The position numbers were made by a program, and so were the translations under genes. DNA of 64,000 bases from an uncultured Bacteroidales bacterium (GTDB lineage Bacteria > Bacteroidota > Bacteroidia > Bacteroidales > VadinHA17). The notes under the pieces are model-generated. The model was not told the origin of the DNA. It worked only from the letters and a program-made list of their open reading frames with translations, and did not search any database. Shown piece by piece: positions 27,833 to 49,238 of the stretch. Each line of letters begins with the position of its first letter. Position 1 is the first letter of the stretch. The stretch lies in the NCBI GenBank assembly GCA_963737255.1, contig CAVTSB010000001.1:648032-712031 (forward strand), in the 5' to 3' direction.

Positions 27833-28068
27833 AACCACTAAGGAGAAAGCACCTCACCCCAACCCCTCAGGAGAAAGCACCTCACCCCAACCCCTCAGGA
27901 GAAAGCACCTCACCCCAACCAATAAGGTGAAAGCACCGCACCCCAACCAATAAGGAGAAAGCACCTCACCCCAACCAATAAGGAGAAAGCACCTCACCCC
28001 AACCAATAAGGTGAAAGCACCTCACCCCAACCAATAAGGTGAAAGCACCTCACCCCAAGGGATTGTTG
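27833..28068. repeat. Tandem array, 8 full plus 1 partial copies of a 28-bp unit
   Basis: Units start at 27833, 27861, 27889, 27917, 27945, 27973, 28001, 28029 and 28057. The consensus is ACCTCACCCCAACCAATAAGG(A/T)GAAAGC; two copies carry CCCCTCAGG. There are no spacers. Confidence 0.95.
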
Positions 28069-28253: not shown

Positions 28254-28682
28254 ATGGTTTATCTGGGAAGAGCAAAAGTCAAGGATATGTTCATTGATGC
28301 TAAGCCTGAATTATTCAAACTTGCACGAGGCTACAGAAAGGATCCGACAGAAGCTGAAAAAGTCCTGTGGGAACATTTACGATTATTTCGCAAAGATGGA
28401 TTTGTATTTCGAAGGCAACATCCAGTCGTCTTTTTTGTCGCTGATTTTTATTGCCACAGTATCAAACTGGTTGTTGAGGTGGATGGGGGAATTCACACCA
28501 ACCCCCGGGTACAGGAGTATGACGAAAACAGATCCGGTGAACTGGATAGGTATGGGATCACTGTCATGAGGCTTAAAAATGAAGAAATCATAAATAATTT
28601 AGAGCAAGTTCTGTCACGAATTCGATTGTATATTAGTGAGTTATCCTCCCCCTCCCACGGGGAGGGGGATAAGAGGGGGTGA
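28254..28682 (+). CDS. DUF559 (Vsr-like / PD-(D/E)xK fold) endonuclease-domain protein
   Basis: AEKVLWEHLR...FRRQHPV..FVADFYCHSIKLVVEVDGGIH...D..R...L...G..V.R is the characteristic DUF559 core. The 3' end and stop codon lie inside the downstream repeat. Confidence 0.8.
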   Translation: MVYLGRAKVKDMFIDAKPELFKLARGYRKDPTEAEKVLWEHLRLFRKDGFVFRRQHPVVFFVADFYCHSIKLVVEVDGGIHTNPRVQEYDENRSGELDRYGITVMRLKNEEIINNLEQVLSRIRLYISELSSPSHGEGDKRG

Positions 28683-28765
28683 GGTCCTTCCTTTCCAGGA
28701 GGGGGATAAGAGGGGGTGAGGTTCTTTGCCCTCGGGGGAGGGGGATAAGAGGGGGTGAGGTGCTT
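28647..28765. repeat. 10-bp-stem triloop hairpin plus 3 copies of GGAGGGGGATAAGAGGGGGTGAGGT
   Basis: Hairpin TCCCCCTCCC-ACG-GGGAGGGGGA (28647-28669). Repeat copies start at 28661, 28698 and 28737. Confidence 0.9.
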
Positions 28766-28905
28766 CGCAGGGTATCGGTCAGGGTTAACGGTCTTCCCAT
28801 AAAGCGGGGTGGGAAAGGGTGAGGCAGGTGTCCGTTAAATTTTTTTAATACTGTTCTGCATTTGCAATGTTTTTTCTATCTTGACGCAAATTTTTGTCCT
28901 GAAAA

Positions 28906-30444
28906 ATGAAGAAGTTTCTGCTATGGTTCACTCCCGGCCTGATCGTCGGAGTTATAATTATTCTGGGTGCGGGTAAGGTAATAACATCTACGTCAACCAA
29001 CGATTATTGCGTTTCGTGTCATATTCACCCGATGGCTGATGCCGAATGGAAAAAATCGGTTCATTATGAAACCGAATCAGGATACCGGGTGGCATGCGTT
29101 GAATGTCATCTTCCACCCAAAGGTGACGGATACCTGTGGGCAAAGGGTACTACCGGCTTACGCGATCTCTGGAGCTTCTGGACGAAGGATTCCGCCTCTT
29201 TCGACTGGGTTGAACGAGGCAGGCTGGAAATCGCACGGGGGCATGTTTACGAAAGCAGCTGCATAAAGTGCCATGAGAACCTTTTCCCCCCGGCCCTTAC
29301 CAAAGAAGGGGAGGATGCACACCTTTATTATACACAGCAGGAAAAAACACCTGATCTCCATTGCATAAACTGCCATCTGAACGCTGGCCATTACATAGAA
29401 GGCTATACACATGGAAGCAACACCACTTTCGGGGCTACTTCGTCGGCTCCCAGGGAGATCTATTCAGTCCCTACGCCTGTCAATGCTTTTGAAAACTATG
29501 TGGAGAAAATACCGGCATCATCAATTTCTTTTAATATGGTCGCAATTCCCGGGGGTACCTTTAAAATGGGAAGTCCGGCTGACGAGCCATTCAGGAAGGA
29601 AAATGAAGGTCCTGTCAGGGAAGTTGAGCTGAGTCCCTTCTTCATGGCTGAAGTTGAAGTAACATGGGATGAGTACCTGGCTTTCTATGTTCAGACAGCT
29701 GCAGAGGGCCGCACTACTGACACTGAAGGGTTGAGGAACCAGCAGGCATCGTCTGAGGATGTTGACGCCATTTCAGGAGCCACACCGCCATACGGACAGC
29801 CCGACCAGGGATGGGGATTGGGACAGAGGCCGGCAATTTCATTCTCATTTCATGCGGCAGAAACATATTGCAGGTGGTTATCGCAGGTTACAGGCAAGAC
29901 CTACAGGCTGCCTACCGAAGCTGAGTGGGAATATGCCTGCAGAGCAGGGTCGGAAGGGCCTTATTTCTTTGACGGCGATCCGAAGAAGTTTGAAAAAAGC
30001 GGGCTGAGGGCCAGACTATCGAAGAATGACACAGCCATAATAAATACCTACGTGGTTTATAAAGAGAACAGCCCTGGCAAGACTCAGACACCTGATTTTG
30101 TCAGGCCCAATCCCTTTGGTTTAAGGAATATGGCAGGTAACGTTGCGGAATTTTGTGCCGACTGGTATCAGGCCGATGCTTATTCACAGTATCCCGATGG
30201 GGTAGTTAAAGATCCTTCAGGGCCGGAAAGCGGGGAGGAGCATGTCGTAAGGGGAGGAACTTTTATCAGTACCGCTGGTGCACTTCGTAGCGCTGCACGC
30301 GACTATACCAGGACAGAAGCCTGGCTCAAAACTGACCCGCAGATGCCCAAAAGCATCTGGTGGTACTCTGATTGCTTTAATGTCGGTTTCAGGGTAGTTT
30401 GCGAATTTGACAGCAAAACAGGGAACGTAACTCCCTCAAACTGA
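28906..30444 (+). CDS. Fusion protein: N-terminal TM anchor plus NapC/NirT-type tetraheme cytochrome c, C-terminal FGE/SUMF1-like domain
   Basis: Four CxxCH motifs (CVSCH, CVECH, CIKCH, CINCH) follow one TM helix. The C-terminal half has FGE-sulfatase-fold signatures (GGTFKMGS, YRLPTEAEWEYACRAG, NVAEFCADWY, VVRGGTF). Confidence 0.8.
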   Translation: MKKFLLWFTPGLIVGVIIILGAGKVITSTSTNDYCVSCHIHPMADAEWKKSVHYETESGYRVACVECHLPPKGDGYLWAKGTTGLRDLWSFWTKDSASFDWVERGRLEIARGHVYESSCIKCHENLFPPALTKEGEDAHLYYTQQEKTPDLHCINCHLNAGHYIEGYTHGSNTTFGATSSAPREIYSVPTPVNAFENYVEKIPASSISFNMVAIPGGTFKMGSPADEPFRKENEGPVREVELSPFFMAEVEVTWDEYLAFYVQTAAEGRTTDTEGLRNQQASSEDVDAISGATPPYGQPDQGWGLGQRPAISFSFHAAETYCRWLSQVTGKTYRLPTEAEWEYACRAGSEGPYFFDGDPKKFEKSGLRARLSKNDTAIINTYVVYKENSPGKTQTPDFVRPNPFGLRNMAGNVAEFCADWYQADAYSQYPDGVVKDPSGPESGEEHVVRGGTFISTAGALRSAARDYTRTEAWLKTDPQMPKSIWWYSDCFNVGFRVVCEFDSKTGNVTPSN

Positions 30445-30772: not shown

Positions 30773-33700
30773 ATGAAAAAAACTCCTAGCTGCTTTTGGT
30801 CTTACGGACCAAATGTGAGTTTTCGCAGGTTTCTTCTGCCGGCGAAAATTGTAGTTATTCTTCTGTTCTGCAGTCTGGCAATTCCTAACCTTGCCACCGC
30901 TGCAGATTACCCTGCTGTTGAAGATCAGCAGGTCAGGATCACTGGTACTGTGACTGATGCTACAACCGGAGAAGCGATGCCGGGTGTAAACATTCAGGTA
31001 CAGGGAACCAGCATCGGTGCCATCACCGATATTGACGGTAAGTATGCTCTCGAGAATGTTGACCGTGGTGCTACCCTCATTTTTACATTTATCGGTTATG
31101 ATTCACAGCAGGTAGCTCTGAGCGGCCGGGTTGTTGTCGACGTAGCCCTGGTCCAGGAAGTGACCGACCTCGATGAAGTTGTTGTTGTGGGTTATGCAAC
31201 CCAGAAACGTGCAAACGTTGTGGGATCAGTAACATCAATTTCAGGCCAGTCTATTCAGTCCATTCCTTCTGTTTCAGTTTCAACTGCCATAGCAGGTCGT
31301 CTGCCTGGGTCCATTGTTATCCAGGAAACCGGCGAACCGGGCAACCTTGGAGCAAGGATATTGGTACGTGGCCGTTCTACAATATCAAGGAATGATAGGT
31401 ATGCTAACACAGGTCCGCTTGTAATAATTGATGGTGTGCAGGGACGTTCTATGGATGAGATCGATCCGATGGATATAGCATCACTTTCGGTGCTGAAAGA
31501 TGCTTCTGCCGCTATTTACGGAGCATCTGCTGCAAACGGGGTTATTCTGATAACGACCAAAAGTGGCGCTGAAGGAAAACCGAGACTGAACTATCAGTTC
31601 TACCAGGGTTTTATGACTCCGACAGTTGTGCCCGAAACAACTAATGCTGCCGAGTATGCCACTATGCTTTCGGAGTACCAAGATTACCAGGGAAAATCAC
31701 GCACATACACCGATGAGGAAATTGCACTTTTTGCAAGCGGTGATGATCCGTGGGGACACCCGAATACTGATTGGTATGGCGATCTGATAAAGAATTGGAC
31801 AACCACGTACCGGCATAATCTCACGATCGATGGTGGCTCAAAGGGTATGACATACTATGTTTCACTCGGTCTGAAAGGTGACGAGTCATTTTATAAGCAG
31901 TCAACAACCAGTTACAAGCAGTATAATGTTCGCGCAAAGATCAATCTGCCTATCAATAGTTGGTTAAATACCGGGCTTGATATCGCCGGCTTCCTGAATA
32001 ACCGTATATATCCTTATAAGAGTGCGGATGCAATCGTCGGCCAGTCAACCCGTCTGTTGCCAACTCAATGGTCCTTCTGGCCTAATGGTCTGCCCGGACC
32101 TGATATTGAATATGGCGATAACCCTGTTGTCACTTCCACTTTTGCAGGTGGCAAGAACGACCAGAAAACATACAGGATGCAGAGCACTTTCAGCTTTAGC
32201 ATCACTCCTCCTGTTATTAAAGGACTGGCTATTAACGGGGCCTTCAGCTTTGACCTTACAAACTACTATAACAAGGCATTTTACAAGCCATGGACATTGT
32301 ATTTCCCTGACAAGAATGCTCCGATTGATCCTGCTACGGGTTATTACCCGCTGTATCCAAGTCTCAGGGGCCTTTCATCACCTGAGAACAATGAAAGATA
32401 TGACAGGACTATCAACCAGACGGGGAATGTTAACGTCACCTACACAAAGAAGTTTGGTGACCATAACCTAAATATCTATGCCGGTTATGAGCAGTATACA
32501 AATAATTATAACCGCCTTGTCGGCTACCGCAAATACTATATTTCCGATCTTATCCAAACAATGGATGCGGGGTCAGATGCTGAAAAAAACTCTTCAGGTT
32601 ATGCAACAATTTATGCCCGGAAATCATGGATCGGCCGTGCTACATATGACTACAAAGGAAAATACCTTGCTGAAATCCTGTTCCGTCGCGACGGTTCCCT
32701 CAAATTCCCTCCGGAAAGCCGCTGGGGTAACTTCCCGGGATTCCTTGTCGGATGGCGTGCATCTGAAGAAGGATTCTGGAAGGAAAGCCTTCCGTTTATC
32801 AATTACTTCAAGCTGAGGGCATCATATGGAAAAATGGGGATGGACCCCGGAGATCCGTTTCAGTACATGAACAAATTCGGGCTGTCATCCGGAATGGTAT
32901 TCGGAACAGGTACCTCAATTGAAACTACAGTCGGACCTCCTTCAATTGCAAACCCCAACATAACATGGGAGACTCAGACAACAAAGAACGTCGGGTTCGA
33001 TTCGAAATTCCTGAACGACCTCTTCCATCTTAATTTTGAGTACTTCTATAATATCAGGGAAGATATTCTCTTTCCGAGGGATGCAACGGTTCCGGGATTT
33101 TCAGGGCTTTCACTTCCCGATGAAAATATCGCACGTGTTGATAACCAGGGTTTTGAAATTGAACTGGGATTCCATAAAACCCTGGGAAGTGATGTCAGGC
33201 TCGACCTTTCCGCAAATTTCAGCCATAGCCGCAATAAGGTTGTTTTCATGGATGAACCTGAAGTTTTAATGCCATGGCAGGTAAGAGAAGGCCGTCCATA
33301 TGTATTAAATAATGATAACCTGATGTACAAGGCTATCGGCATTTATGCCGATCAGGCAGATCTTGATACCTACGTGCACCTACCTAATGCAAAACCCGGT
33401 GATGTTATATTCGAAGATGTCAGCGGCGACGGTGAGATAACAAATGACGACAGGATATTCCTTGATAAGTTTGATATGCCTGAGAATTACTATGGTATCA
33501 CACTTGATGTCGGGTATAAGGCATTTACACTTACGGTTCTCGTTCAGGGACAGGGTGAATTCTGGAAGCTGAACTATTATGATAACCGTCGTGGTGAAGC
33601 AGGTAATTATTTTAAATGGCATTACGATAACAGGTGGACACCGGATAATATTCACACCGATGTGGCAAGAGCCTATAACCGGGATGACTTATACTGGTCA

Positions 33701-33952
33701 AATGATGTAAGGAGAAGTACTTACTGGTATGACAACTTCGCCTTTGCCCGGTTGAAAAATGTGGTTCTTACCTACAATGTACCGAACAGATTGTACAGGT
33801 CTTTGGGGATACAGAACGCAAATGTATATTTTTCAGGGAACAACCTTGCGCTTCTTTACAGTGCAACAAAAACTTACGATCCGGAAGTAAATCATCCTGG
33901 TGTATACCCTGCTATGAGAACATTTGCTGTAGGAGCTAATATTACATTTTAA
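30773..33952 (+). CDS. susC: SusC/RagA-family TonB-dependent outer-membrane transporter
   Basis: CarboxypepD_reg-like N-domain (ITGTVTDATTGEAMPGVNIQV), plug (VVVGYATQKR) and C-terminal ..GANITF. No STN domain. Confidence 0.9.
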   Translation: MKKTPSCFWSYGPNVSFRRFLLPAKIVVILLFCSLAIPNLATAADYPAVEDQQVRITGTVTDATTGEAMPGVNIQVQGTSIGAITDIDGKYALENVDRGATLIFTFIGYDSQQVALSGRVVVDVALVQEVTDLDEVVVVGYATQKRANVVGSVTSISGQSIQSIPSVSVSTAIAGRLPGSIVIQETGEPGNLGARILVRGRSTISRNDRYANTGPLVIIDGVQGRSMDEIDPMDIASLSVLKDASAAIYGASAANGVILITTKSGAEGKPRLNYQFYQGFMTPTVVPETTNAAEYATMLSEYQDYQGKSRTYTDEEIALFASGDDPWGHPNTDWYGDLIKNWTTTYRHNLTIDGGSKGMTYYVSLGLKGDESFYKQSTTSYKQYNVRAKINLPINSWLNTGLDIAGFLNNRIYPYKSADAIVGQSTRLLPTQWSFWPNGLPGPDIEYGDNPVVTSTFAGGKNDQKTYRMQSTFSFSITPPVIKGLAINGAFSFDLTNYYNKAFYKPWTLYFPDKNAPIDPATGYYPLYPSLRGLSSPENNERYDRTINQTGNVNVTYTKKFGDHNLNIYAGYEQYTNNYNRLVGYRKYYISDLIQTMDAGSDAEKNSSGYATIYARKSWIGRATYDYKGKYLAEILFRRDGSLKFPPESRWGNFPGFLVGWRASEEGFWKESLPFINYFKLRASYGKMGMDPGDPFQYMNKFGLSSGMVFGTGTSIETTVGPPSIANPNITWETQTTKNVGFDSKFLNDLFHLNFEYFYNIREDILFPRDATVPGFSGLSLPDENIARVDNQGFEIELGFHKTLGSDVRLDLSANFSHSRNKVVFMDEPEVLMPWQVREGRPYVLNNDNLMYKAIGIYADQADLDTYVHLPNAKPGDVIFEDVSGDGEITNDDRIFLDKFDMPENYYGITLDVGYKAFTLTVLVQGQGEFWKLNYYDNRRGEAGNYFKWHYDNRWTPDNIHTDVARAYNRDDLYWSNDVRRSTYWYDNFAFARLKNVVLTYNVPNRLYRSLGIQNANVYFSGNNLALLYSATKTYDPEVNHPGVYPAMRTFAVGANITF

Positions 33953-33973
33953 TTAATGCGAAATCTCTGAAAC

Positions 33974-35866
33974 ATGAAAAAAATAACTAGATGTATTTTA
34001 TCGATAGCAGTGCTGCTGTTTTTCGCTACATCATGTACTGATGTGCTGGACCAACAGGCTGTTGACGCTTTCAATCAGGATGTCGTTTTCGCCGACATTA
34101 ATATTGTGAAAGCCTATATTGGGAAATGTTACGACAGGATGGGGGGAAATACCAACAATGGTATTCTGGGCATGCGCGAGGACCTTCTCTCATCTGCTAC
34201 TGATCAGACATTGTGCATCCATCGCCCGGCTAACTACGTCGATCTCAAGGGGACAATGAGTCCCGACCAGCTCGGATTTTATGTCAATACCGGTATGGGA
34301 GGATATCTGAGGTGGACAGATCTGTATGCAAATATTCAGAATCTGAATACCGTTATAGCAGGTATCGATGATGTACCTGTTGTTACAGCCAGTGAGGAGA
34401 CACTTAAAGCCCGGCTGAAAGGTGAGGCTTATTTCATCAGGGCTTTTATGTATTCACAACTGATGTTTGGCCACGGCGGTGTGGTAATCAATAAACAACC
34501 TTTCGGACTTCAGGATGATTTCTCTACACTTGTACGCTCTTCAATAGAAGAAACAAAAGATGCCATCCTGGAGGATATCGATGAGGCAATAACACTTTTA
34601 GCAGGTAAAACAACAGACCAGGGCAGAGCAACTGCTGCGGCTGCCGCTGCACTGAGGTCAAGGGTTCTTCTTTTCTGTGCAAGCAAACTTACCAATGGTG
34701 GTTATGCTGCCCAGGCTACAAATCCTCTTGTTTCATTCCCGGCTGGTTCGCAGACCGCCTTACTTCAGGCTGCCAGAGATGCTGCCAAAGGTGTCATGGA
34801 TGGAACTTATGGAACATTCAGCCTGGCCGGGAGTACGGCCGATCCGGTTCTTCCGTTAACCGAGGCTCAAGTTAAATCATATGCCGAAAACTATCAGAAA
34901 ATCTTCACTCAGAAAGGAGCCTGGAATAGTGAAACAATATGGGGAATTCAGTATCCGATAACAGGAGGTAATAATAACGTATGTAACAGGTGGAACGGAC
35001 CTTGCGGTTATCATAACTGGGGTAACAATAATCCTACTGAACCAGCTGTGAGAAGCTTTGAGATGGCTGATGGAACCGAGTTCAACTGGCTGGCATATAA
35101 CCCGGGTGGAGATCAATTTACTGCACGTACGGCTACTGCCGCAGAGCTCGCCGCAGACCCGCTCAAGAACCCTTTTAACGGCCGTGAACCACGCTTCTAT
35201 GCAATTGTGCTTTATCATGGCGCCCCATGGCAAGCAAGAGGTGACCTGCCAGCATATGCAGAAACCGGACATATTTATAACAACGACGGTACGCTGAAAT
35301 CGAACGGGACCGATTCGAGGCAGGGACTTATTGAGGCCTGGAACGGTACGAAGACAGGTTATTACCTCAAGAAATTCATGGATCCGGAAACTGCCGGACA
35401 ATATTACAATAATACCAATACATGGGTTGAATTCCGTTATGCAGAAATACTGCTGAATTATGCAGAAGCATGTATTGAACTGGCAGTTCTCGGACAAGCA
35501 GCTGATCTGCAGAATGGTCTCGATGCACTCAATATGGTAAGAAACAGGGCAGGATTGCCTGACCGGGTGACTGCTGACCCCCTGGTTGCACGCGATTATT
35601 TACGTCATGAAAGGGCAATTGAATTCTTCGGTGAAGGACATCGTTGGTACGATACACGCCGCTGGATGATCCGTGATATAGTCACAACAAATGTCTATGG
35701 CATGAAGATCAAGCAGTACCTCAATGGCAATATGGAATGGAAGCTCGATATTGAGGACAAGGAAGATGACAGGAGTTGGGCAGGAGATCATTTCTACTGG
35801 CTGGCGATCCCAAGGGCTGAAATTCAAAAAGCTCCACAAACGATCCAAAACCCCGGATTCAACTAG
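33974..35866 (+). CDS. susD: SusD/RagB-family nutrient-binding lipoprotein
   Basis: Lipobox FATSCTD, the RAF.Y..L and EIxLNYAEA motifs, and C-terminal ..IQNPGFN. Confidence 0.9.
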   Translation: MKKITRCILSIAVLLFFATSCTDVLDQQAVDAFNQDVVFADINIVKAYIGKCYDRMGGNTNNGILGMREDLLSSATDQTLCIHRPANYVDLKGTMSPDQLGFYVNTGMGGYLRWTDLYANIQNLNTVIAGIDDVPVVTASEETLKARLKGEAYFIRAFMYSQLMFGHGGVVINKQPFGLQDDFSTLVRSSIEETKDAILEDIDEAITLLAGKTTDQGRATAAAAAALRSRVLLFCASKLTNGGYAAQATNPLVSFPAGSQTALLQAARDAAKGVMDGTYGTFSLAGSTADPVLPLTEAQVKSYAENYQKIFTQKGAWNSETIWGIQYPITGGNNNVCNRWNGPCGYHNWGNNNPTEPAVRSFEMADGTEFNWLAYNPGGDQFTARTATAAELAADPLKNPFNGREPRFYAIVLYHGAPWQARGDLPAYAETGHIYNNDGTLKSNGTDSRQGLIEAWNGTKTGYYLKKFMDPETAGQYYNNTNTWVEFRYAEILLNYAEACIELAVLGQAADLQNGLDALNMVRNRAGLPDRVTADPLVARDYLRHERAIEFFGEGHRWYDTRRWMIRDIVTTNVYGMKIKQYLNGNMEWKLDIEDKEDDRSWAGDHFYWLAIPRAEIQKAPQTIQNPGFN

Positions 35867-35887
35867 AAAATTGAACTGTGAAATAAA

Positions 35888-35917
35888 GGAGGCGCCCATT
35901 TAAGGCGCCTCTTTTTA
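35888..35917 (+). terminator. Rho-independent terminator after susD
   Basis: GGAGGCGCC-CATTTAA-GGCGCCTCT followed by TTTTT. Confidence 0.75.
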
Positions 35918-36048
35918 TGTGCGCCCGGCATGGGCGATAACTACAGGGTGAAAGTCCCGGGTGCAGCTTGACAATAGGAAGAGTTACCCAAAAGCAAGGG
36001 TGTCGGTAGGTTGAATTCGAAGCCAGAATCCTGGTCTGGTCCGAAGGA

Positions 36049-37815
36049 TTACCTGTAAAAAGCATAATACCAGAACGTATTCCCGAATTTCTGACGCAAA
36101 GCCGGTTCGGCGGATTTCAGGTTGTTACCATACTGCTGAAATGTCTGGAGAAACTGATTAAACCTTTGTGCAGTCCGGGGATCCGGACGGAGAGTCCCCT
36201 CATTGGGTAGTGGACCCAGATTCAATGTCTTGTAAGCTTCAGCTGCCTCCTGTATATGAACAGGGATCTTTGTGAATCCGTATTTGCCAAGGCCCTCAAG
36301 CTGAGCAGAGATCCCCATATAATCTTTCTTAAGCAGCATAAAGGCAAGCTTATATTCAAATGCTTTTCTGTTTAAGGAATCGTATGATAGGATCCTTTCT
36401 ACATTAATGTAAGGGTCATCGGTTATAGAAAAGAAATCGTGCTGAATCTTTTCCTTTCTTTTCAAACCAAGCTGCGGATCTGATTCAACGGCTGAATCAT
36501 TGAAAAGCAATTTTTCCCACGCTTTTGCTTCGGTCCTGTAAAAAAGTGTCTTTTTTAATGTTGAAATATATTTGGCGGCTACCTCATAATTGCCATTTAC
36601 TAACTCGGTTTTGATAAGCATTCTCAGATCTTCCGGCGAGAGCCCTTTCATTATCATGTTTTCATACGCCCATCTTTGTGCCTCATTTATCACTCCTATA
36701 GTGTAATAAAAATATCCTCCCCGCCTGAGTATTTCCCCCGACATCTCCCACTTCAGGAAAAGGGTCTGCCCTTCGGGATTTTGCCTGAACTGAAAAAGCT
36801 GATCATTCAGTCTGCCCGTCTCACAAAGTGCAATATTATTCAGGTATATTGTAAGAATGTTATTCGATTTATTTTTTTTGTTGAAATCAATAACTTCATC
36901 GTACTTTCCCTGGCAAAACAACTTTTCAACAATAAAATATTGCCGTGTCTTATTGTCAAAACGGAGGATCGAGACAGTGATGATGGCCATCAATAATACA
37001 ACTGACGGTATGAGTTTCCCAATAATCCCTTTGATCTTAAACCTGTTAAATGAGTGGATCCTTATCCGTGAAATTAACGGCAGGATAATTATCAACCCGG
37101 CGAAGGCCAGAAATAAGCGGGATTGAAAACCTGCCCCGGCATCAGTAAACGGAAAGGTTAAAAGTGTTTCTGCAGACCGGAACAGAACGTATTCTTTGAG
37201 AATAAAAAGAATCAGTAATGCTGTAAGCCAAAGCAACAGGATCATATACCATTCCTTTTTCAGTGAACTTATTGAAAAATGCAGGGAGTACATCAGAATA
37301 AAGACCCATGAAAATCCCCCGGTAATCCAATAAAGAACAGGGAAGATTATAATAGAAGGCCATCCTTTCAGGTATCTGATTGTAAGATAGAATATAGCCA
37401 GCTGGATAAGCAGACCAAGACTGTTGTAAAGCAGGTACTGGTAATTAGTGTGGAAATAGAAGAGTGCAGCGCCAAAGAAGAGTGGGATTACAATTGAATC
37501 ACTGCCCGTCAGAATTCCGGTGATTTTTGAGACCAGGAATACCAGAAGGCAGATGACAGTTCCAACAATTGCCGCTCCGGCTGCAGGATAATAATAAAAT
37601 GATGTCAGAAAGTCTGAAGTGTAAACAAGCAATGATCCGGGCTGATTCAGATGTCCGGCAAGATAATCGCCGGAGAATACAAAAAGAGTCAGTTTTTCCT
37701 GGTAATATGCAGCATAATCCGCAAAGAATGAAAAGAAAATGAAGACTGACGCAAATAATATCAGGTAAGGCAAAAAGCTGAAAAAACTATTGTTTGATTT
37801 CTTAAGCTGATTCAT
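36049..37815 (-). CDS. Polytopic membrane protein (about 9-10 TM) with C-terminal soluble helical/TPR-like domain, possibly DUF6057-like
   Basis: 588 aa. The N-terminal ~300 aa are strongly hydrophobic helices and the C-terminal half is helical-repeat-like. The family name is from memory only. Confidence 0.5.
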   Translation of the reverse strand: MNQLKKSNNSFFSFLPYLILFASVFIFFSFFADYAAYYQEKLTLFVFSGDYLAGHLNQPGSLLVYTSDFLTSFYYYPAAGAAIVGTVICLLVFLVSKITGILTGSDSIVIPLFFGAALFYFHTNYQYLLYNSLGLLIQLAIFYLTIRYLKGWPSIIIFPVLYWITGGFSWVFILMYSLHFSISSLKKEWYMILLLWLTALLILFILKEYVLFRSAETLLTFPFTDAGAGFQSRLFLAFAGLIIILPLISRIRIHSFNRFKIKGIIGKLIPSVVLLMAIITVSILRFDNKTRQYFIVEKLFCQGKYDEVIDFNKKNKSNNILTIYLNNIALCETGRLNDQLFQFRQNPEGQTLFLKWEMSGEILRRGGYFYYTIGVINEAQRWAYENMIMKGLSPEDLRMLIKTELVNGNYEVAAKYISTLKKTLFYRTEAKAWEKLLFNDSAVESDPQLGLKRKEKIQHDFFSITDDPYINVERILSYDSLNRKAFEYKLAFMLLKKDYMGISAQLEGLGKYGFTKIPVHIQEAAEAYKTLNLGPLPNEGTLRPDPRTAQRFNQFLQTFQQYGNNLKSAEPALRQKFGNTFWYYAFYR

Positions 37816-37842
37816 TTTTCTGATAAGAGGATTTAAGGTGCA

Positions 37843-39318
37843 TCAGTTATCCGGCATTCCGGCCTGAACGGCAGGCATCCCGGCACTTCTCCTGATCTCC
37901 CCCGGACCGACCCTGATCTTAACGAGCGAAAATTCAGGTATGTTGTAACTTTTAAGGAAACGGTGGTAGAATTCAGGATCTTTTTGCGGCATGATAAATG
38001 GTTTGGCTGAATTCCCGTTTTCATCCATATATGAGATGAAAGGACGGGTGGTCAGGCCGTCGATACGCTTGCTGCTGAACAGCATCCATCTGCCGTTTGA
38101 TGACCATGAGTGATAACTGTCGGTCCGGTCGCTGTTCAGGGAAAGAGGGTAAGCTTTCAGGGAATCGAGGTCAATTGACCACAGATCGGCTTCCTTGTGC
38201 CAGATGGGGAAGCAACCATAGTCGTGAAGAGTGATCACCATGAATCTCCCGTCGGGCGAGATCCTGGGGAACGAAACGCTTTTCCCCTGTTCTGAAGCAT
38301 TAAAAACAAGTTCAGGCTCACCGGTGTGGCGGGTTGCTAGGTCGAATGGTACCCTGAACAGGTCGTAGTGTATTTCCTGGTACTCAAAGTTTTCCCCTGC
38401 AAGGGGAGCCCGGCAGAAATAGAGCCAGCGGCCGTCAGGCGACCATTCGGGATAGGTGTCCATGTATTTTTCCTTTTCAGGAAGGTTTGCATCCAGCATA
38501 ATGTTCTTTTCTACATCATAAATAAACAGGGATGATTCGAGGTCACTTACTTCCACTTTCTTATTCAGGGCAGAATGGAACTGCTGGACAATCCTGTTGG
38601 ATGAAAAAGCAACGTAATTTCCTGAAGGATGCCAGCGGGGATAAACGGCCCCGTTTTTCATTGCGTCGGTTTTCAGGTTGTACTTTTTAAATTCACCGTC
38701 TCTGAAGAAATAGGTACCGCCAAAACTGCCCCTCATGTGAAAGAGGAAATCGTCCGATCTTCCGTTGTTGAACGAATGGCAGTTAATGCAATTCTGATCA
38801 ACGACGCTGTTTTCGATTATTGAGGTTTCCTTAAAGCTTTCGATGCTTCGCTGCCTGATGCTTATCTCTTTCCAGCTTTCATAACCGGGATAGAGCAGCC
38901 TGTAGCTAATGTAGGGATCGACGGGCTCGGCGGCAATGAAGTTTGTTATTGTTTTATATTTCGACCAGTTCCCGTTTTTGTCCTTCAGGAATATGTCGAT
39001 TTTCAGATCATTCCCTTTGTTGCTGCCAAGGAGCTTTCTCCATTTCTTCTGTGGTATACTGACGATCCCGTTCCTGGTTCCGGTTTCAATTACTGATTTA
39101 CCGCCTGAAGAAAATCTGACAAAATATGCCTTTGCATCCTGGTTGATTTTGAAGTTTAAAGGAGCAATATTGTACGGGATTGTAATTCCGGAATAGTCGG
39201 GGTCGATAGGGGGCAGATCATTCAGTTCGGAAATTTTCCCGCCTGGTTTATTCCCGCAGCCATAAAGTGCAGAGATAAGGATTATTAAATAGAATTTATA
39301 TTTTAATATCCGGGTCAT
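37843..39318 (-). CDS. Lipoprotein with one CxxCH motif and TolB/PD40-like beta-propeller repeats
   Basis: Lipobox LYGCGN after the start MTRIL at 39318, CINCH motif, and repeated W(S/H)P(D/S)G(R/N) blades (WHPSGNY, WSPDGRW, ISPDGRF, WSSNGRW). Confidence 0.65.
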   Translation of the reverse strand: MTRILKYKFYLIILISALYGCGNKPGGKISELNDLPPIDPDYSGITIPYNIAPLNFKINQDAKAYFVRFSSGGKSVIETGTRNGIVSIPQKKWRKLLGSNKGNDLKIDIFLKDKNGNWSKYKTITNFIAAEPVDPYISYRLLYPGYESWKEISIRQRSIESFKETSIIENSVVDQNCINCHSFNNGRSDDFLFHMRGSFGGTYFFRDGEFKKYNLKTDAMKNGAVYPRWHPSGNYVAFSSNRIVQQFHSALNKKVEVSDLESSLFIYDVEKNIMLDANLPEKEKYMDTYPEWSPDGRWLYFCRAPLAGENFEYQEIHYDLFRVPFDLATRHTGEPELVFNASEQGKSVSFPRISPDGRFMVITLHDYGCFPIWHKEADLWSIDLDSLKAYPLSLNSDRTDSYHSWSSNGRWMLFSSKRIDGLTTRPFISYMDENGNSAKPFIMPQKDPEFYHRFLKSYNIPEFSLVKIRVGPGEIRRSAGMPAVQAGMPDN

Positions 39319-39348
39319 TGAAATTTCTTGAATGATCAGGGGAACGTG

Positions 39349-39356
39349 CAAATTTA
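39349..39356 (-). promoter_or_regulatory. -7 box TAAATTTG upstream of the 39318 start
   Basis: Plus-strand CAAATTTA. Its position supports the ATG at 39318 over the ORF-track start at 39351. Confidence 0.4.
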
Positions 39357-40163: not shown

Positions 40164-41577
40164 ATGAAAAAATCAAGTATTTCAAGACGTAATTTTCTTG
40201 GCAAGGCTGCTACCGTGGGAGTTGCAGGCATTGTTGTGCCAACGATCATTACAAGCTGTGCCCGTGAAACAAAGAAAGTAGTTGAAGTGCCCGCTTTTCT
40301 GGACCAGGCTCCCGACGGACCGGTTATCAAGGCAGGTGTTATTGGTTGCGGCGGTCGGGGAACCGGAGCAGCAATAAACTTCCTTAATGCAGGCCCGAGT
40401 CTGCAGATCACTGCCCTGGGTGACACGTTCCAGGATCGGGTTGACGCCTGCAAGGCCAGGATACTTAAAGAAAAGGGCCAGGAAGTACCGGCTGAAAATT
40501 GTTTTGTAGGGTTCGATGCTTTTCAGAAGGTGATTGATTCAGGAGTTGATCTTGTTATTCTGGCCACTCCGCCATCTTTCCGTCCTGAGCATCTTGCAGC
40601 GGCAGTTACCGCCAAAAAGCACATATTTGCTGAAAAACCAGTATGTGTCGACCCCACAGGTGCAAGATCGGTAATGGCTACTGCAAAGAAAGCTGAAGGA
40701 ATGGAGCTGAGCATTGCAACTGGTACCCAGCGCCGTCACCAGCGCGATTACGTTGCAAACTGGCAGCAGGTTCAACAGGGAATGATCGGTGAACTGACAG
40801 GCGGTAATATCTGGTGGAACGGAGGAAAACTCTGGCATCGCGACAACGATCCGTCATGGAGCGAAATGGAGTGGATGATCCGCGACTGGGTTAACTGGAC
40901 ATGGCTGTCAGGTGACCACATTGTTGAACAGCACGTTCATAATATTGATGTCATGAACTGGTTCTTCGGGGCACACCCCACAAAGGCAGTGGGCATGGGC
41001 TCAAGGCTGCGCCGGGTAACAGGCGATCAGTATGATAATTTCAGCATTGATTACGTATTTGAGGATGGCAGGCATGTTCACAGCATGTGCCGTCAGATAA
41101 ATGGTTGCGCCAACAATGTTTCTGAAAGATTGCAGGGAGCAAAAGGATCAACCAACTGCCAGAACACTATACTTGACCTCGCCGGAACCGAACTGTGGAA
41201 ATATGACTATCCCCTCGATGCCGACGGCAAACCGACAAGCCGCGTAGCTTGACCCGTATGTTCAGGAACATATCGACCTGATCACAGCCATCCGTACGGG
41301 CAAAGTATTCAATGAACTGGAAGCCACGGCAGTCTCAACATTGATCGGTATTATGGGACGTATCTCTGCTTATACAGGGAAAGAGACTACATATGAAGAG
41401 ATGATGAACTCCGACCTTAAGCTTGGCCCAACAGTATTTGCATTCGGTCCGGTTGATATTGCAAAAGAAGTTCCGATTGCAGGTTTGCCTTATATTCCCC
41501 CGACAGCTGAAGAGCTGGCAGCTCAGGCTAAAAGACGGGCTGAAAGGGAGGCTCAAAGACAAACGAGTCAGAATTAA
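40164..41577 (+). pseudogene. Tat-signal Gfo/Idh/MocA oxidoreductase interrupted by a +1 frameshift at 41247-41252
   Basis: The N-terminus SRRNFLGKAATVGVAG is a Tat signal, followed by a Rossmann domain. ORF 1 stops at TGA 41250-41252. The conserved continuation LDPYVQEHIDLITAIRTGK...STLIGIMGRISAYTGKE runs in the +1 frame to 41577. Confidence 0.75.
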
Positions 41578-41595: not shown

Positions 41596-42540
41596 ATGAA
41601 TAGCTCAAGAAGAGAATTTATAAAGAAAACAACAACAGGTGCTGCAATTCTGGCAGCACCTGCTTTTCTCGGATCATCCAAAGTATCGGGTCAGCAGAAA
41701 GCTACTGATGCCACTGCCCCTTTCAGGCTGAAATATGCCCCCGGTCTGGGGATGTTCCGTCAGCACGCGGGACAGGACCCGGTTGACAACATTAAGTTCT
41801 GTCACGATATGGGTTTCAGAGCCGTTTTCGATAACAGCCTTATGCGAAGGGAACCCGAACTTCAGTTACGGATCGTGAATGAACTGAAACGCCTGGATAT
41901 GGATCTGGGTCCTTATGTACTGCGGGCTGATTCGGGGAAAACAGATTTTGTCCTTAATACCCAGGAGGTCCGCGATACTCTGATCGCCAGTATGAAAGAG
42001 GGCGTCGAAGTTTCAAAAAGAACCGGCGCAAAACAGGCCCTGGTAGTTCTGGGCAGGTATGATGTAAAGCTCCACAGGGATTACCAGACTGCAAACGCGA
42101 TCGACAACCTGAGGTACTGCTGTGATATAATGGAACCTGAGGGGATAACAATAGTACTGGAGCCGCTCAACAATTATATCAATCATCCGGGACTATTTCT
42201 TACAGGCATTCCGCAGGCATATTCCATTTGCCGGGCAGTGAACAGGCCTTCATGCAAAATCGTTAACGACATTTATCATCAGCAGATCAGCGAAGGAAAC
42301 CTGATACCCAACATAGAGGCGGCATGGAGTGAAATCGCGGCTTTCCATCTCGGCGACAATCCGGGAAGAAATGAACCCACAACAGGCGAGATTAATTACA
42401 AGAGTATCTTTAAGTATCTCTATAACAAGAAATACGATGGTACTCTGTGTATGGAGCATGGTATAAGCCAGAGAGGCACAAAGGAAGGCGAAGCACGGGT
42501 TATCCAGGCCTACCGGGAATGCGATAGCTTTGAGGTATAA
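41596..42540 (+). CDS. Tat-signal xylose-isomerase-like TIM-barrel protein
   Basis: SRREFIKKTTTGAAILAAPAFLGS Tat signal, with a body of the sugar phosphate isomerase/epimerase family. Confidence 0.7.
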   Translation: MNSSRREFIKKTTTGAAILAAPAFLGSSKVSGQQKATDATAPFRLKYAPGLGMFRQHAGQDPVDNIKFCHDMGFRAVFDNSLMRREPELQLRIVNELKRLDMDLGPYVLRADSGKTDFVLNTQEVRDTLIASMKEGVEVSKRTGAKQALVVLGRYDVKLHRDYQTANAIDNLRYCCDIMEPEGITIVLEPLNNYINHPGLFLTGIPQAYSICRAVNRPSCKIVNDIYHQQISEGNLIPNIEAAWSEIAAFHLGDNPGRNEPTTGEINYKSIFKYLYNKKYDGTLCMEHGISQRGTKEGEARVIQAYRECDSFEV

Positions 42541-42601: not shown

Positions 42602-43780
42602 TTAATCCAACAGATGCTCAATCGGTTTTGTTCCTTCCGGACCAACAATTGTCACTTTGATCTTCGCGCCGGTGACATCACATTTCAGGTAGGCATTGTT
42701 GCTGTTCACAATCACGGGAAATGTTGTTTTTCCTGCAACAGGCGCATTATATGAATACCTGTGGGTGTGCCCGCTGAATACAACATCAACTTTTGCCTCA
42801 TTCAGAAGCGGTAAAAGGGTTTCATCAAGATGCAGTGTGCCATGCCAGTTACTGACGCCCGGGGGCATGTGAAGCATCACGATCCTGACTGCAGCATCCC
42901 TGAATTCCTTTGCCTGGATTGCTCCCCTGAGCCAGGCTGCCTGGGCTTCCCTGTAGGCATCGAAATCAGCAAGACCGCTATATTCTATATCAGAGTCGGG
43001 TTTATCCTCCCCGCAGTCAAGCACCAGAAATGCAACCTCGCCTGCATTGAAAGTCCGGTATACCCTTCCCTCCTTCAGCGGGAAATAGTCCATGAGGAAA
43101 TCGGAATAGGTCCCCCTGGTCTCATGATTGCCCCTGTTGAAGGCGATCGGAATCCTCTTTGCAAATAAATCCACCGAGGCGTCAACGAAATCAGTCATAA
43201 GCTGCTCCTCACTGTTAATTGCCGTCGACATATCGCCGTTAAAGAATACCATATCGAGCGAGGAAAAATCAACATCCTTGCAGAGGTCCCTCATAAACTG
43301 AGCCCTGCCGTGAAGGTCGTTAAACATAATGAATGACACTGTATCGTCCTGGTGGCTGAAAGTTGTGAATGAAAGGGAATTCCTGCTGTACGCGGCATTG
43401 GCAACGGTTATTCCGTAAACTACCCGGCTATCTGTCTGCCAGTTAATCACTTCTTTTGAAAAAACGGCATAGCGGTACTTTGTTCCCGGCTCCAGATCCT
43501 CAATCCGCACCTTATGAAGGTTCGAGGCAGCTTGTTTGCGTCCGTAGCGTGAGTTGTAATAACGCGGCCGTTCCTTTCCGTAGAAATGACTGCCGTCGTC
43601 GGGAGCGATCTCAACCCATGATACGGCATTTTTGTTTGTCATCCAGACGATTGTCACACCGGTTTCGCTCATATCGGTAAGCCATGGACCGTGTGTGATC
43701 TTAAAACTATCCTGGGAGTATCCCCTGAAGCTCAGGGCAAGAACCAGAAATATTAAAACTGAAGTTTTCCTTTGCATCAT
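42602..43780 (-). CDS. Secreted metallophosphoesterase (purple-acid-phosphatase-like)
   Basis: Signal peptide, FN3-like N-domain, and calcineurin-like motifs GDMS, GNHE and GHTH. Confidence 0.8.
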   Translation of the reverse strand: MMQRKTSVLIFLVLALSFRGYSQDSFKITHGPWLTDMSETGVTIVWMTNKNAVSWVEIAPDDGSHFYGKERPRYYNSRYGRKQAASNLHKVRIEDLEPGTKYRYAVFSKEVINWQTDSRVVYGITVANAAYSRNSLSFTTFSHQDDTVSFIMFNDLHGRAQFMRDLCKDVDFSSLDMVFFNGDMSTAINSEEQLMTDFVDASVDLFAKRIPIAFNRGNHETRGTYSDFLMDYFPLKEGRVYRTFNAGEVAFLVLDCGEDKPDSDIEYSGLADFDAYREAQAAWLRGAIQAKEFRDAAVRIVMLHMPPGVSNWHGTLHLDETLLPLLNEAKVDVVFSGHTHRYSYNAPVAGKTTFPVIVNSNNAYLKCDVTGAKIKVTIVGPEGTKPIEHLLD

Positions 43781-43797
43781 TTATTTAAGTTAAAAAA

Positions 43798-43894
43798 GAG
43801 GCTATCTCAAAATCCCTTGTTTTTCACCCCTAAAGGGAACTTTTAAGAACCACCCTCAGGGGCGCAGGGGGTGAAAATGGGTTGAGATAGCCTC
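43798..43894. repeat. 97-bp composite inverted repeat
   Basis: The outer 13-bp arms GAGGCTATCTCAA / TTGAGATAGCCTC enclose the inner 10-bp arms TTTTCACCCC / GGGGTGAAAA. Confidence 0.85.
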
Positions 43895-43908
43895 CGGATT
43901 GTCAACTA

Positions 43909-45705: not shown

Positions 45706-45716
45706 AATCTCTGATT

Positions 45717-48700: not shown

Positions 48701-48863
48701 ACTGCTGCTGATCCCCCGTGTCGGGGATATCTGCCGACAGGATATTGGCCGGTAGTGCCGGCACCAATACCATCAGCAGAATCGTCAGTTTAATGATCCT
48801 TAAAAGATTCTTCGAACCGGTACCCGTACAGACCGGCCCAAACAAATAGTTTTTTTGTTTCAT
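45717..48863 (-). CDS. susC: SusC/RagA-family TonB-dependent transporter
   Basis: CarboxypepD_reg-like domain, plug (VVVGYGTQKA) and C-terminal ..GVNVTF. ATG at 48863 (MKQKNYLF) is preferred over the TTG at 48914. Confidence 0.9.
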   Translation of the reverse strand: MKQKNYLFGPVCTGTGSKNLLRIIKLTILLMVLVPALPANILSADIPDTGDQQQLRVSGTITDAASGDVMPGVNIQAKGTVTGAISDSDGKYTIELTDRNSTLVFSFIGYVSQEISVGGKTTVDVALVQETTSLQEVVVVGYGTQKAATITGSISAVKAESLKASSTINFTNTFAGRLPGLVVVTRSGEPGNDNSTLRIRGMNTLGDNSPLIVVDGIANRSMQRLNPDDIESVTVLKDASAAIYGAQAANGVILITTKRGSMGKSQVNLTFNQGWSMPTVIPKMADASTYATLLNEIDVYAGKSPRYTEEQIGKYADGSDPWSYPNTDWFGTTFKRAALQQSANFSVTGGFESLKYFVSIGGNFQDAIYKNSATNYSQANFRSNIDGKISKNINLSFDISGRQENRNYPTRSASNIFAMLMRGYPTSVAYWPNGLNGPDIEYGNNPVVVTTSQTGYDKTKTYVFESRLKLDITIPWVRGLTFTGNAAIDKTIENGKLWQTPWYLYNWDGVTYDENNDPVLVVGKKGFSTPQLTQEMGDSRRTTLNGLINYEHNFGGNHDFKILVGSEMIDGEDMEFSAFRKYFVSTAIDQLFAGGDLEKTNTGSAGISARLNYFGRVNYNYMQKYLAEFVWRYDGSYIFPEGKRFGFFPGVSLGWRVSEEDFWKNNISIVNYFKLRGSWGQTGNDRIATYQYLASYGYNSSLNGIYTFNNSVENKILSELRIPNPDVTWEVANQSNIGFDAQLFKGRLTLSGDYFYNLRTNILTYRNASVPATTGLTLPRENIGKVVNQGFEFTVGYNNKVGNFTYDVSINSGFQKNRIKFWDETPGIPEYQQSTGHPMNSSLYYRAIGVFKDDEAVAAYPHWAGARPGDIIFEDVNKDEKIDGLDRVMQYKTDLPTFTGGMNLNLSYRNFYSAIFVQWATGAVVNRYYEMQGESGNFLAADTEGRWTADNINSSKPRTWNRYGEYWRDNENNTYWLQNTNYMRLKNFELGYSFPNAISKLGINGLRVYFNGINLLTLDKLTDFDPESNSVTAYPLNKTFNLGVNVTF

Positions 48864-49118
48864 AGTTAGATTATTTTGAAGTTTTAAGTAGTATTTTGTT
48901 CTTTCGACTTTCAATGGGTTCTTTATCTCATAGGCTTGACGGATTTAGGTTAGACTTAGGGTAAAATGGGTTATATTTATAAAATTGTGATCAGGAACTG
49001 AGGTAAATGAAAGACTAAACTAATTATCTAACGACGGGTCAAATTTAACAAGACAATCGGGATTATTACAAAAATGTTACATTATAAAAGGAAGAAAATT
49101 ATTAAAGATTGTTAAAGG

Positions 49119-49146
49119 GGAGACCGGAGACGGGAGACCCGAGACC
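49119..49146. repeat. Heptanucleotide tandem array (GGAGACC GGAGACG GGAGACC CGAGACC)
   Basis: Read directly; lies 93 nt upstream of the ATG at 49239. Confidence 0.85.
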
Positions 49147-49238
49147 GAAGTGGATTTTAATTATTTTTCGTTACTTTACCTTCTGAAATTGTTACAATCG
49201 AAAGGTTAGCGAAATTCATTCCCACTAAATATAATGCC

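Follow-up and report, generated by a model that had tools for sequence, protein, structure and literature searches.

Several described systems resemble parts of the gene examined here. TorC, a membrane-bound tetraheme cytochrome, docks TorA through a C-terminal extra domain, and PvdO is a periplasmic protein with the fold found in formylglycine-generating enzyme (FGE) that is required for dihydropyoverdine oxidation. Free nicotinamide cofactors are not known to form a pool beyond the cytoplasm, and the NAD(P) of exported GFO/IDH/MocA enzymes (hereafter GFO) is, to our knowledge, re-oxidised only via a second substrate. ApbE recognises the motif D-x-x-[S/T]-G-A-[S/T] and places flavin mononucleotide (FMN) on its last residue (PMC12052999). 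In Shewanella, the urocanate reductase UrdA, which is flavinylated by ApbE, obtains its electrons from CymA, a member of the NapC/NirT family (PMC8238504). Two surveys of flavinylation found new ApbE substrates by the same logic as is used below (PMC8238504, where it led to DUF2271 and DUF3570, and PMC11334425), and orphan apbE genes remained in 4% of genomes (PMC8238504). The present analysis concerns a stretch of 64,000 nt (the window) from an uncultured Bacteroidales bacterium (contig CAVTSB010000001.1, positions 648,032 to 712,031) and, within it, a gene in which a NapC/NirT tetraheme cytochrome is fused to an FGE-like domain (Table 1). With somewhat better than even confidence, this fusion is read as a membrane-anchored subunit for electron transfer within a periplasmic dehydrogenase system, with the FGE-like domain acting as a flavin redox adaptor.

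To establish how widely the architecture occurs, as a sequence-only reading of this DNA had suggested, protein databases were searched for it, and the combination of NapC/NirT and FGE-like domains was found in Bacteroidales and in other phyla. All 120 Bacteroidales relatives, from uncultured members of the order, were full-length fusions with four CxxCH motifs and 78−98% identity. With P0124, a representative of 50% identity, as the query of a second search, 119 further fusions of 50−63% identity were obtained from other phyla, the named sources being Acidobacteriota, Terriglobia, Latescibacteria and KSB1. The 120 and 119 full-length fusions from two independent searches ruled out a missed stop codon or an assembly artefact, which had been considered for the case that the halves were separate genes in all relatives; they are fused across phyla. 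The fusion is a real, conserved and uncharacterised feature.

The Pfam search of the fusion protein gave PF03264 and PF03781 and no other domain. Judged from its sequence, the N-terminal half is a genuine NapC/NirT domain that lies outside every characterised equivalog. One membrane helix was present at the N-terminus (hydrophobic residues 5−27; residues 2−28 in the AlphaFold2 (AF2) model), the model as a whole having a mean predicted local distance difference test (pLDDT) score of 80.6 and a predicted template modelling score (pTM) of 0.80. In an alignment of 150 sequences the heme Cys and His residues were invariant, as were the additional His residues H41, H53, H139 and H162 and the pair K80 and D87. 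The latter pair aligned by phmmer with K82 and D89 of Desulfovibrio NrfH, residues which we take to line the menaquinol site in the NrfH structure. The single transmembrane helix and the four CxxCH motifs in NapC/NirT arrangement, as first noticed, were confirmed by PF03264, the AF2 helix and the motif positions; the motifs, which might have proved not conserved among homologues, were conserved throughout the alignment. The earlier reading as a quinone-pool module is supported by the invariant match of K80 and D87 to the putative quinol site. Equivalog models scored below their cut-offs, namely NrfH (67 bits, cut-off 134), NapC/NirT (47 bits, cut-off 311) and TorC (71 bits, cut-off 478), the TorC model matching the N-terminal part only. 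In P0363 and in 47 of the 119 P0124-like fusions, which are non-Bacteroidales, heme motif 1 takes the form CxxxCH (e.g. CDQTCH).

For the C-terminal half, PF03781 (FGE-sulfatase) covered aa 210−467 with 156.5 bits (cut-off 23.3). The FGE of T. curvata (6s07) matched with E = 6e-27, and the alignment stopped at KGGSFLCH in the fusion, opposite RGGTFIST in 6s07. Foldseek ranked PvdO first (5hha; target-normalised TM score 0.75) and FGEs next, with E ~1e-17; SUMF2 and PorK were also among the structural matches. The domain had initially been described as ‘Cys-less’. This holds for the catalytic, Cu-binding pair, the counterpart of which reads RGGTFISTAGALRSAARD and is likewise absent in relatives, but not for the whole domain, where five other cysteines are present (C322, C345, C417, C490 and C499). 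That formylglycine formation is unlikely was borne out, as the catalytic Cys pair is missing. An FGE role was further tested through association with Cys-type sulfatases, and no conserved sulfatase was found in about 170 loci; the single sulfatase near an FGE-like gene lay ~6 kb off in one Acidobacteriota locus (L081). Two signatures characterise the fusions: D-A-x-[ST]-G-[AP]-T-P-P-[YWF]-G...PDQGWG, which does not occur in canonical FGE-sulfatase proteins, and DPQxPKSxWWYSD...VGFR, which is common to a stand-alone subfamily and missing from generic FGE-sulfatase proteins.

The exact ApbE motif DAISGAT sits in the middle of a subfamily-specific loop of the FGE-like domain. In 858 neighbouring proteins (325,038 residues) the motif occurred twice, a chance rate of 0.003 per 512 aa. 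The canonical form was present in 119 of the 120 Bacteroidales fusions, and fusions from other phyla mostly carried D-A-x-T-G-P-T. Among 120 stand-alone proteins, D-A-V-S-G-A-T was found in 39 and D-A-V-[ST]-R-P-[TS] in about 60. The terminal Thr/Ser was retained across fusions and stand-alones. Within the loop, T293 was at least 90% conserved and G291, P294, P295, Q301, G302, W303 and G304 were invariant in the 150-sequence alignment. Apart from the linker (aa 165−182), the only regions of low confidence in the AF2 model (pLDDT <50) were aa 267−287 and 290−302, corresponding to this loop. Since invariant residues coincide with low pLDDT in a cofactor-free model, it is suggested that the loop may become ordered only on binding of a cofactor or partner. 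The FGE-like domain is predicted to be extracytosolic, lying behind a signal-anchor and a c-type heme domain, and the stand-alone proteins have signal peptides. FMN is probably attached covalently to T293 by a phosphoester bond. The known types of flavinylated domain (FMN_bind, NqrB/RnfD, DUF2271, DUF3570, Flavodoxin_4 and FMN_red) were not found in the fusion by Pfam.

Two fusions of low-GC lineages, P0126 and P0188, have the N-terminal GGxFxMGSPxDEPxRxxDEGP strand region deleted (alignment columns ~250−275). In these proteins the N-terminal third of the FGE-like domain is gone and the flavinylation-type loop and the C-terminal DPQxPKSxWW remain, which suggests that the function of the domain resides in its loop and C-terminal half.

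An ApbE gene was located directly upstream of the fusion in two Acidobacteriota loci (L081 and L082). A hidden Markov model (HMM) built from these two genes was used to scan the other loci. In ten stand-alone loci it detected an ApbE gene no more than about 1.3 kb away from the FGE-like one; near generic FGE-sulfatase genes it was found in 0 of ~32 loci (Fisher p = 0.001 versus FGE-like loci). In total, 14 loci had ApbE beside the FGE-like gene (L081, L082, L101, L103, L104, L106, L112, L117, L119, L121, L125, L141, L164 and L167). The operon of Pedobacter frigoris comprises FGE-like, GFO, ApbE and TIM-barrel genes, and that of Pontibacter toksunensis FGE-like, GFO and ApbE genes. No other protein encoded in the ApbE-containing loci had even a relaxed form of the motif, which ruled out another operon protein as the ApbE target. 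ApbE adjacency was seen in 14 of 42 loci with a deviant motif and in none of 11 with the canonical one (p = 0.026, with no phylogenetic correction). Such an association would be expected if a housekeeping ApbE serves the canonical sites and a dedicated ApbE the deviant ones.

The neighbourhood was compared across clustered open reading frames (ORFs) of 80 Bacteroidales loci, ~57 of which extend downstream of the fusion. A SusC gene begins at 30773, 328 bp beyond the fusion gene and co-directional with it, exactly as the sequence-only reading had it; the suggestion that SusC/SusD is a functional neighbour was not borne out. The series SusC-SusD-DUF6057-PD40 lies directly 3′ of the fusion, as in the window, in 29 of the ~57 loci, and no SusC/SusD was found next to the fusion among the fusion loci from other phyla. 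As a conserved partner it was rejected, since it is confined to a subset of Bacteroidales loci, where it behaves as an insertion between the fusion and a GFO gene. In 27 Bacteroidales loci this GFO gene is directly 3′ of the fusion (27−200 bp), followed by the TIM barrel with a twin-arginine translocation (TAT) signal and then the lactonase. Outside Bacteroidales, downstream DNA was available for 14 fusion loci, and every one of them encodes the GFO there; in the Acidobacteriota loci L081 and L082 and the Latescibacteria locus L083, a GFO of ~450 aa follows 57−90 bp past the fusion. Because the GFO is 56−60% identical between phyla, it can be regarded as an orthologous, co-inherited partner, and on these comparisons the partnership of fusion and GFO is well supported. 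The upstream genes were rejected as partners, their synteny being limited to close Bacteroidales relatives and absent elsewhere.

The GFO carries the twin-arginine signal SRRNFLG. It scored 69 bits against the IolG model (cut-off 355) and 24−31 bits against the BT_2158 family model (cut-off 750), and was accordingly accepted neither as IolG nor as a BT2158-type glycoside 3-dehydrogenase. No close solved structure was found, the nearest having E = 3e-10. The copy in the window is broken: by tblastn, aa 1−362 lie in frame 1 and aa 363−449 in frame 2, with HMM scores of 750 and 150. Because both halves are 86−89% identical to intact relatives, the break points to a mistake in sequencing or assembly or else to a pseudogene of very recent origin.

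Members of the stand-alone subfamily are very common. They are proteins of 300−400 aa with a signal peptide and both signatures, annotated in databases as ‘formylglycine-generating enzyme family protein’; thousands of such relatives occur in the same type of operon, with Pontibacter, Pedobacter, Anseongella, Arcticibacter, Solitalea and Flagellimonas among the named carriers. At least 18 metagenome loci have the stand-alone gene directly beside the GFO clade, in many cases together with the TIM barrel, and the adjacency was seen again in five of five further loci, four of them from cultured species (Pedobacter, Flagellimonas, Anseongella and Pontibacter). The TIM barrel is present in such operons of Pedobacter, Flagellimonas and Pontibacter. 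As stand-alone FGE-like genes adjoin the same GFO clade, the conserved core appears to be FGE-like plus GFO, with the cytochrome as a variable add-on. The TAT-exported partner, the ApbE-type motif and these relatives in the same operon type had all been missed when the fusion was first noticed. One stand-alone locus (L098) is flanked by SusC/SusD.

Other links to cytochromes were found. Two planctomycete-type PSCyt1 domains were confirmed by Pfam in each of two FGE-like proteins (L109 and L126), and PF07635 (PSCyt1) and PF03781 occur together in P0446. In L104, a cytochrome-c-like segment with one CxxCH precedes the FGE-like domain; Pfam did not confirm it as PSCyt1. A NapC/NirT-like hexaheme protein is encoded upstream in L126. 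That heme domains have been joined to this subfamily repeatedly and independently is an argument for electron exchange between the FGE-like domain and hemes.

Further genes with heme motifs or cytochrome domains were observed around stand-alone genes. On two Cytophagia-like contigs, a 215-aa lipoprotein with one CxxCH, Tll0287-like by Pfam and perhaps an electron carrier or a sensor, is encoded directly upstream of a stand-alone FGE-like gene (L100, 5123-5770; L105, 4149-4796). In aerobic Bacteroidota, genes near stand-alone FGE-like/GFO operons (L167, 2030-5458 and 11865-13002; L108, 4395-5888) encode DUF7133-HEAT-cytochrome c proteins and a fusion of cytochrome c to GSDH, a glucose/sorbosone dehydrogenase of the pyrroloquinoline quinone (PQQ) type. 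These genes hint that periplasmic sugar-oxidising respiratory modules cluster near the stand-alone operons.

Taken together, the following electron path is proposed. The TAT-exported GFO, which is distantly related to the dehydrogenases of inositol and of glycosides, would be the catalytic subunit and would carry tightly bound NAD(P), as does the periplasmic glucose-fructose oxidoreductase (GFOR). With this cofactor it would oxidise a periplasmic sugar, glycoside or cyclitol; oxidation with bound NAD(P) is modelled on GFOR and BT2158 (PMC8121099). FMN on T293 would take the hydride and convert the two-electron step into one-electron steps, single electrons would pass to the four c-type hemes, and the hemes would pass them on to menaquinone at the K80/D87 site. 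The resulting menaquinol would be re-oxidised, in Bacteroidales by fumarate reductase or cytochrome bd. Flavinylation, contact with the GFO, the direction of the electrons and the type of substrate are all points that we infer here. The CymA-UrdA chain provides a precedent for joining a NapC/NirT cytochrome to a flavinylated partner. An ‘unknown periplasmic redox reaction’ had been ascribed to the coupling of the quinone-pool module to the FGE fold. The NapC/NirT module is real; the reaction is more likely catalysed by the GFO than by the FGE-like domain, since the GFO is the conserved dehydrogenase neighbour. The direction from substrate to quinone is favoured by thermodynamics, by the PSCyt1 fusions and by the lactonase/dehydrogenase context; in these fusions the PSCyt1-type cytochrome c most likely receives the electrons and hands them on to terminal oxidases.

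Several points weigh against this proposal. NapC/NirT proteins usually oxidise quinol, so that the direction could be reversed. No ApbE was found in the 64-kb window or beside any of the 80 Bacteroidales fusion loci, and a housekeeping ApbE elsewhere in the genome must therefore be assumed. G-P-T in most non-Bacteroidales fusions, and R-P-T in many stand-alones, take the place of G-A-T, and ApbE would have to accept these variants. In the window the reading frame of the GFO gene shifts near 41248, and NAD(P) binding by the GFO clade is predicted from Pfam only. The FGE fold is neither known to bind flavin nor among the known flavinylated domains: the surveys make no mention of FGE, sulfatase, GFO or NapC (PMC8238504, PMC11334425), and PF03781 is not listed in the parts of the supplements of the former that were available (PMC8238504).

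Some of these points would suit a different role, in which the FGE-like domain takes no part in redox chemistry and serves as a docking scaffold in the manner of pFGE/SUMF2 or PorK/GldK, holding the GFO or another partner at the hemes with no flavin. The loop would then be a protein-protein interface and ApbE would serve another protein. The FGE fold is widely used for binding, PorK and SUMF2 were among the structural matches, TorC-type proteins dock their reductase through a C-terminal extra domain, and both the lack of ApbE near Bacteroidales fusions and the non-canonical motif in many relatives fit a scaffold. However, hemes could not accept the hydride of NAD(P)H, and a converter from two electrons to one is needed somewhere. 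The ApbE-containing operons offer no other protein with a loose motif, the exact canonical motif is very improbable by chance at the rate given above, and its terminal Thr/Ser is kept across phyla. A scaffold is, on this evidence, rather unlikely. The FGE-like domain could also be catalytic itself, for example by a PvdO-like, heme-driven dehydrogenation of a molecule or glycan imported by SusC/SusD. PvdO, named dihydropyoverdine dehydrogenase in NCBIfam, is the top structural and NCBIfam match, and SusC/SusD adjoins the fusion in the window and 29 related loci and flanks the stand-alone gene in L098. Against this, the PvdO model gave 101 bits (cut-off 500), SusC/SusD adjoins the fusion neither in the other phyla nor in half of the Bacteroidales loci, and the universally conserved neighbour is a dehydrogenase and thus already a catalytic site. 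With P0126 and P0188 also lacking the N-terminal third of the domain while keeping the loop and the C-terminal motifs, catalysis by the domain is considered improbable.

A decidedly improbable variant keeps the flavin and reverses the polarity, the fusion being an NrfH/CymA-like menaquinol dehydrogenase that passes electrons via FMN to a GFO reducing a keto-sugar or similar. Menaquinol has a potential of about -74 mV and NAD(P) of -320 mV, so that this transfer would be uphill. The lactonase and dehydrogenase-type context suggests substrate oxidation, and aerobic relatives join the FGE-like domain to PSCyt1 domains, which are most likely electron acceptors. In its favour, the characterised NrfH, CymA, NapC and TorC all oxidise quinol, the K/D site is conserved, and chains from CymA to flavinylated reductases exist (PMC8238504). 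Finally, protein modification is the job of FGE-fold enzymes, and the fusion might be an anaerobic maturation enzyme, linked to the respiratory chain, that oxidises a residue of the exported GFO or of sulfatases and delivers the electrons to the quinone pool. NirV-type FGE-like genes do accompany other periplasmic redox enzymes. The absence of the catalytic Cys pair, the lack of sulfatases as conserved neighbours (the one in L081, about 6 kb off, excepted) and the ApbE and cytochrome links, which point to steady-state electron transfer, make this extremely improbable.

Beyond the fusion, the flavin-adaptor proposal can be extended, more tentatively and at somewhat less than an even chance, to the FGE fold at large. 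The fold may include a large, unrecognised class of ApbE-flavinylated domains whose covalent FMN, carried by a flexible loop, re-oxidises the NAD(P)H held tightly by TAT-exported GFO enzymes and passes single electrons to c-type hemes. In anaerobes, these electrons would go through NapC/NirT to menaquinone, and in aerobes to PSCyt-type cytochrome c. No description of an FGE-like/GFO/(ApbE)/cytochrome module was found in the literature searched. If the proposal is true, a flavinylated FGE-fold adaptor would be a general answer to how periplasmic GFO enzymes re-oxidise NAD(P)H, and a new, widespread route would couple periplasmic NAD(P)-dependent sugar oxidation to respiration. The few types of ApbE substrate would be joined by a new fold, thousands of genes named ‘formylglycine-generating enzyme family protein’ would gain a function, and a very common misannotation, as FGE or ‘nonheme iron enzyme’, would be corrected in Bacteroidota, Acidobacteriota, Planctomycetota-type organisms and others. 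For the anaerobic Bacteroidales of sediments, fens and digesters, it would provide a respiratory link from periplasmic sugar or cyclitol oxidation to menaquinone. The cultured carriers Pedobacter, Pontibacter and Flagellimonas make the proposal directly testable.

Table 1. Features of the fusion gene and of the genes downstream of it, in window coordinates.
Feature	Position (nt)	Strand	Basis or remark
NapC/NirT-FGE-like fusion gene, 512 aa, ATG start	28906-30444	+	ORF and translation, Pfam
N-terminal transmembrane anchor, aa ~5-27	28918-28986	+	Hydrophobic sequence; AF2 helix aa 2-28
NapC/NirT tetraheme domain, aa 6-163	28921-29394	+	PF03264 (Cytochrom_NNT), 89.2 bits, cut-off 24.1
Heme motif 1, CVSCH, aa 35-39	29008-29022	+	Translation
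Heme motif 2, CVECH, aa 64-68	29095-29109	+	Translation
K80...D87, equivalents of NrfH menaquinol-site K82 and D89	29143-29166	+	phmmer alignment to 2j7a_C
Heme motif 3, CIKCH, aa 119-123	29260-29274	+	Translation
Heme motif 4, CINCH, aa 153-157	29362-29376	+	Translation
Inter-domain linker, aa ~165-209	29398-29532	+	aa 165-182 pLDDT <50; variable in alignment
FGE-sulfatase-fold domain without catalytic Cys pair, aa ~210-500	29533-30405	+	PF03781; Foldseek
D287-A-I-S-G-A-T293, T293 the proposed FMN site (nt 29782-29784)	29764-29784	+	Exact ApbE motif match
RGGTFISTAGALRSAARD, aa 449-466, counterpart of the catalytic Cys pair region of true FGEs, no Cys	30250-30303	+	Translation and alignment
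Subfamily signature DPQxPKSxWWYSD...VGFR, aa 477-496	30334-30393	+	Invariant alignment columns
SusC	30773-33952	+	Block between fusion and GFO
SusD	33974-35866	+	Block between fusion and GFO
DUF6057	36049-37815	-	Block between fusion and GFO
PD40 protein	37843-39351	-	Block between fusion and GFO
TAT-signal GFO/IDH/MocA oxidoreductase, 1-nt frameshift near 41248	40164-41574	+	Pfam, tblastn, HMM 750 + 150, SRRNFLG
TAT-signal xylose-isomerase-like TIM barrel (AP_endonuc_2), frequent third operon member	41596-42540	+	Pfam
7-bladed beta-propeller lactonase, displaced by second SusC/SusD insertion	50640-51761	+	After GFO and TIM barrel in relatives

The remaining features of the locus concern its wider layout. 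The conserved order is fusion, GFO, TIM barrel, lactonase, glpD, glpK and glpF, and in the window it is broken by two SusC/SusD blocks, at 30773-39351 and 42602-50495. The second block contains a purple-acid-phosphatase-like gene, SusD, SusC and a BNR-repeat gene. Cassettes of the polysaccharide utilization locus (PUL) type thus seem to insert repeatedly into the fusion locus. Conserved upstream genes in Bacteroidales encode a class I fumarate hydratase, a metallo-beta-lactamase (MBL)-fold protein, an esterase, a PLD-like protein and a nucleoside-hydrolase/FmdE protein. The last of these was directly upstream of the fusion in 53 of the 80 Bacteroidales loci; in L026 (6724-8157, minus strand) it is a divergent inosine-uridine nucleoside hydrolase-FmdE fusion of 477 aa with a signal peptide. 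In the window it is absent and a DUF559 (endonuclease-like) gene is found instead (28254-28682), flanked by G-rich repeats at 27906-28016 and 28650-28770 that comprise three copies of GGGAGGGGGATAAGAGGGGGTGAGGT and related hairpins. As most relatives have the nucleoside-hydrolase/FmdE gene there, the DUF559 gene with its repeats looks like a small mobile insertion. A promoter and terminator scan around the fusion gene gave no signal beyond shuffle expectation.

Compared with known systems, the fusion resembles NrfH, CymA and NapC in its one N-terminal transmembrane helix, four CxxCH motifs, PF03264 score above threshold and equivalents of K82 and D89. It differs from them in the additional 300-aa C-terminal FGE-fold domain, in probably running as a quinone reductase and, relative to NrfH, in the first heme motif (CHIH in the fusion, CHxM in NrfH). 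With TorC it shares the plan of a membrane tetraheme cytochrome with a periplasmic C-terminal domain for one dedicated partner encoded alongside. TorC, however, has a monohaem cytochrome as this domain and a molybdoenzyme reductase as its partner, whereas here they are an FGE fold and a GFO-type dehydrogenase.

The FGE-like half shares its fold with FGE/SUMF1 (PF03781, 6s07), but lacks the Cu-binding Cys pair and the sulfatase context, and lies on the periplasmic face of an anaerobe. The names used in databases, ‘formylglycine-generating enzyme family protein’ or ‘SUMF1/EgtB/PvdO family nonheme iron enzyme’, say nothing beyond the fold. PvdO, the top structural and NCBIfam match, is likewise periplasmic and without the FGE Cys pair, whereas the fusion carries hemes and has a GFO partner; membership of the PvdO family (NF051459) was rejected at 101.4 bits (cut-off 500), with no pvd genes nearby. 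EgtB, OvoA and SenA were rejected because their models matched the FGE-like part only (39−72 bits, cut-offs 360−420) and the N-terminus is a cytochrome, not DinB-like. GldK (PorK/GldK; 99 bits, cut-off 350) and GldJ (51 bits, cut-off 458) were rejected as well, with no gld or por neighbours.

With the ApbE-flavinylated domains of NqrC, RnfG, UrdA/fumarate reductase (FMN_bind), DUF2271 and DUF3570, the FGE-like domain has in common its predicted extracytosolic location, the motif, apbE nearby in 14 related loci (not in the window) and its proposed place as a link from membrane cytochromes or quinones to a periplasmic oxidoreductase. It differs in having an FGE/C-type-lectin-like fold instead of FMN_bind and in its G-P-T and R-P-T variants, and its flavin is predicted. 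Periplasmic sugar oxidation, as proposed for the GFO, is known from LacABC, ThuAB, BT2158-type enzymes and Zymomonas GFOR. LacABC disposes of its electrons via cytochrome c (PMC8121099), but is based on flavin adenine dinucleotide (FAD) and the GMC family. GFOR and BT2158 are, as proposed here, TAT-exported GFO-fold enzymes with bound NAD(P), but both recycle it by a second substrate and not through a respiratory link. Glycoside 3-dehydrogenase systems also include a TIM-barrel ‘sugar phosphate isomerase/epimerase’, and a DUF1080 protein as encoded in L081 (PMC8121099). By its domain content, the context of GFO and TIM barrel resembles the periplasmic 3-keto-glycoside pathways, but the GFO belongs to a different clade.

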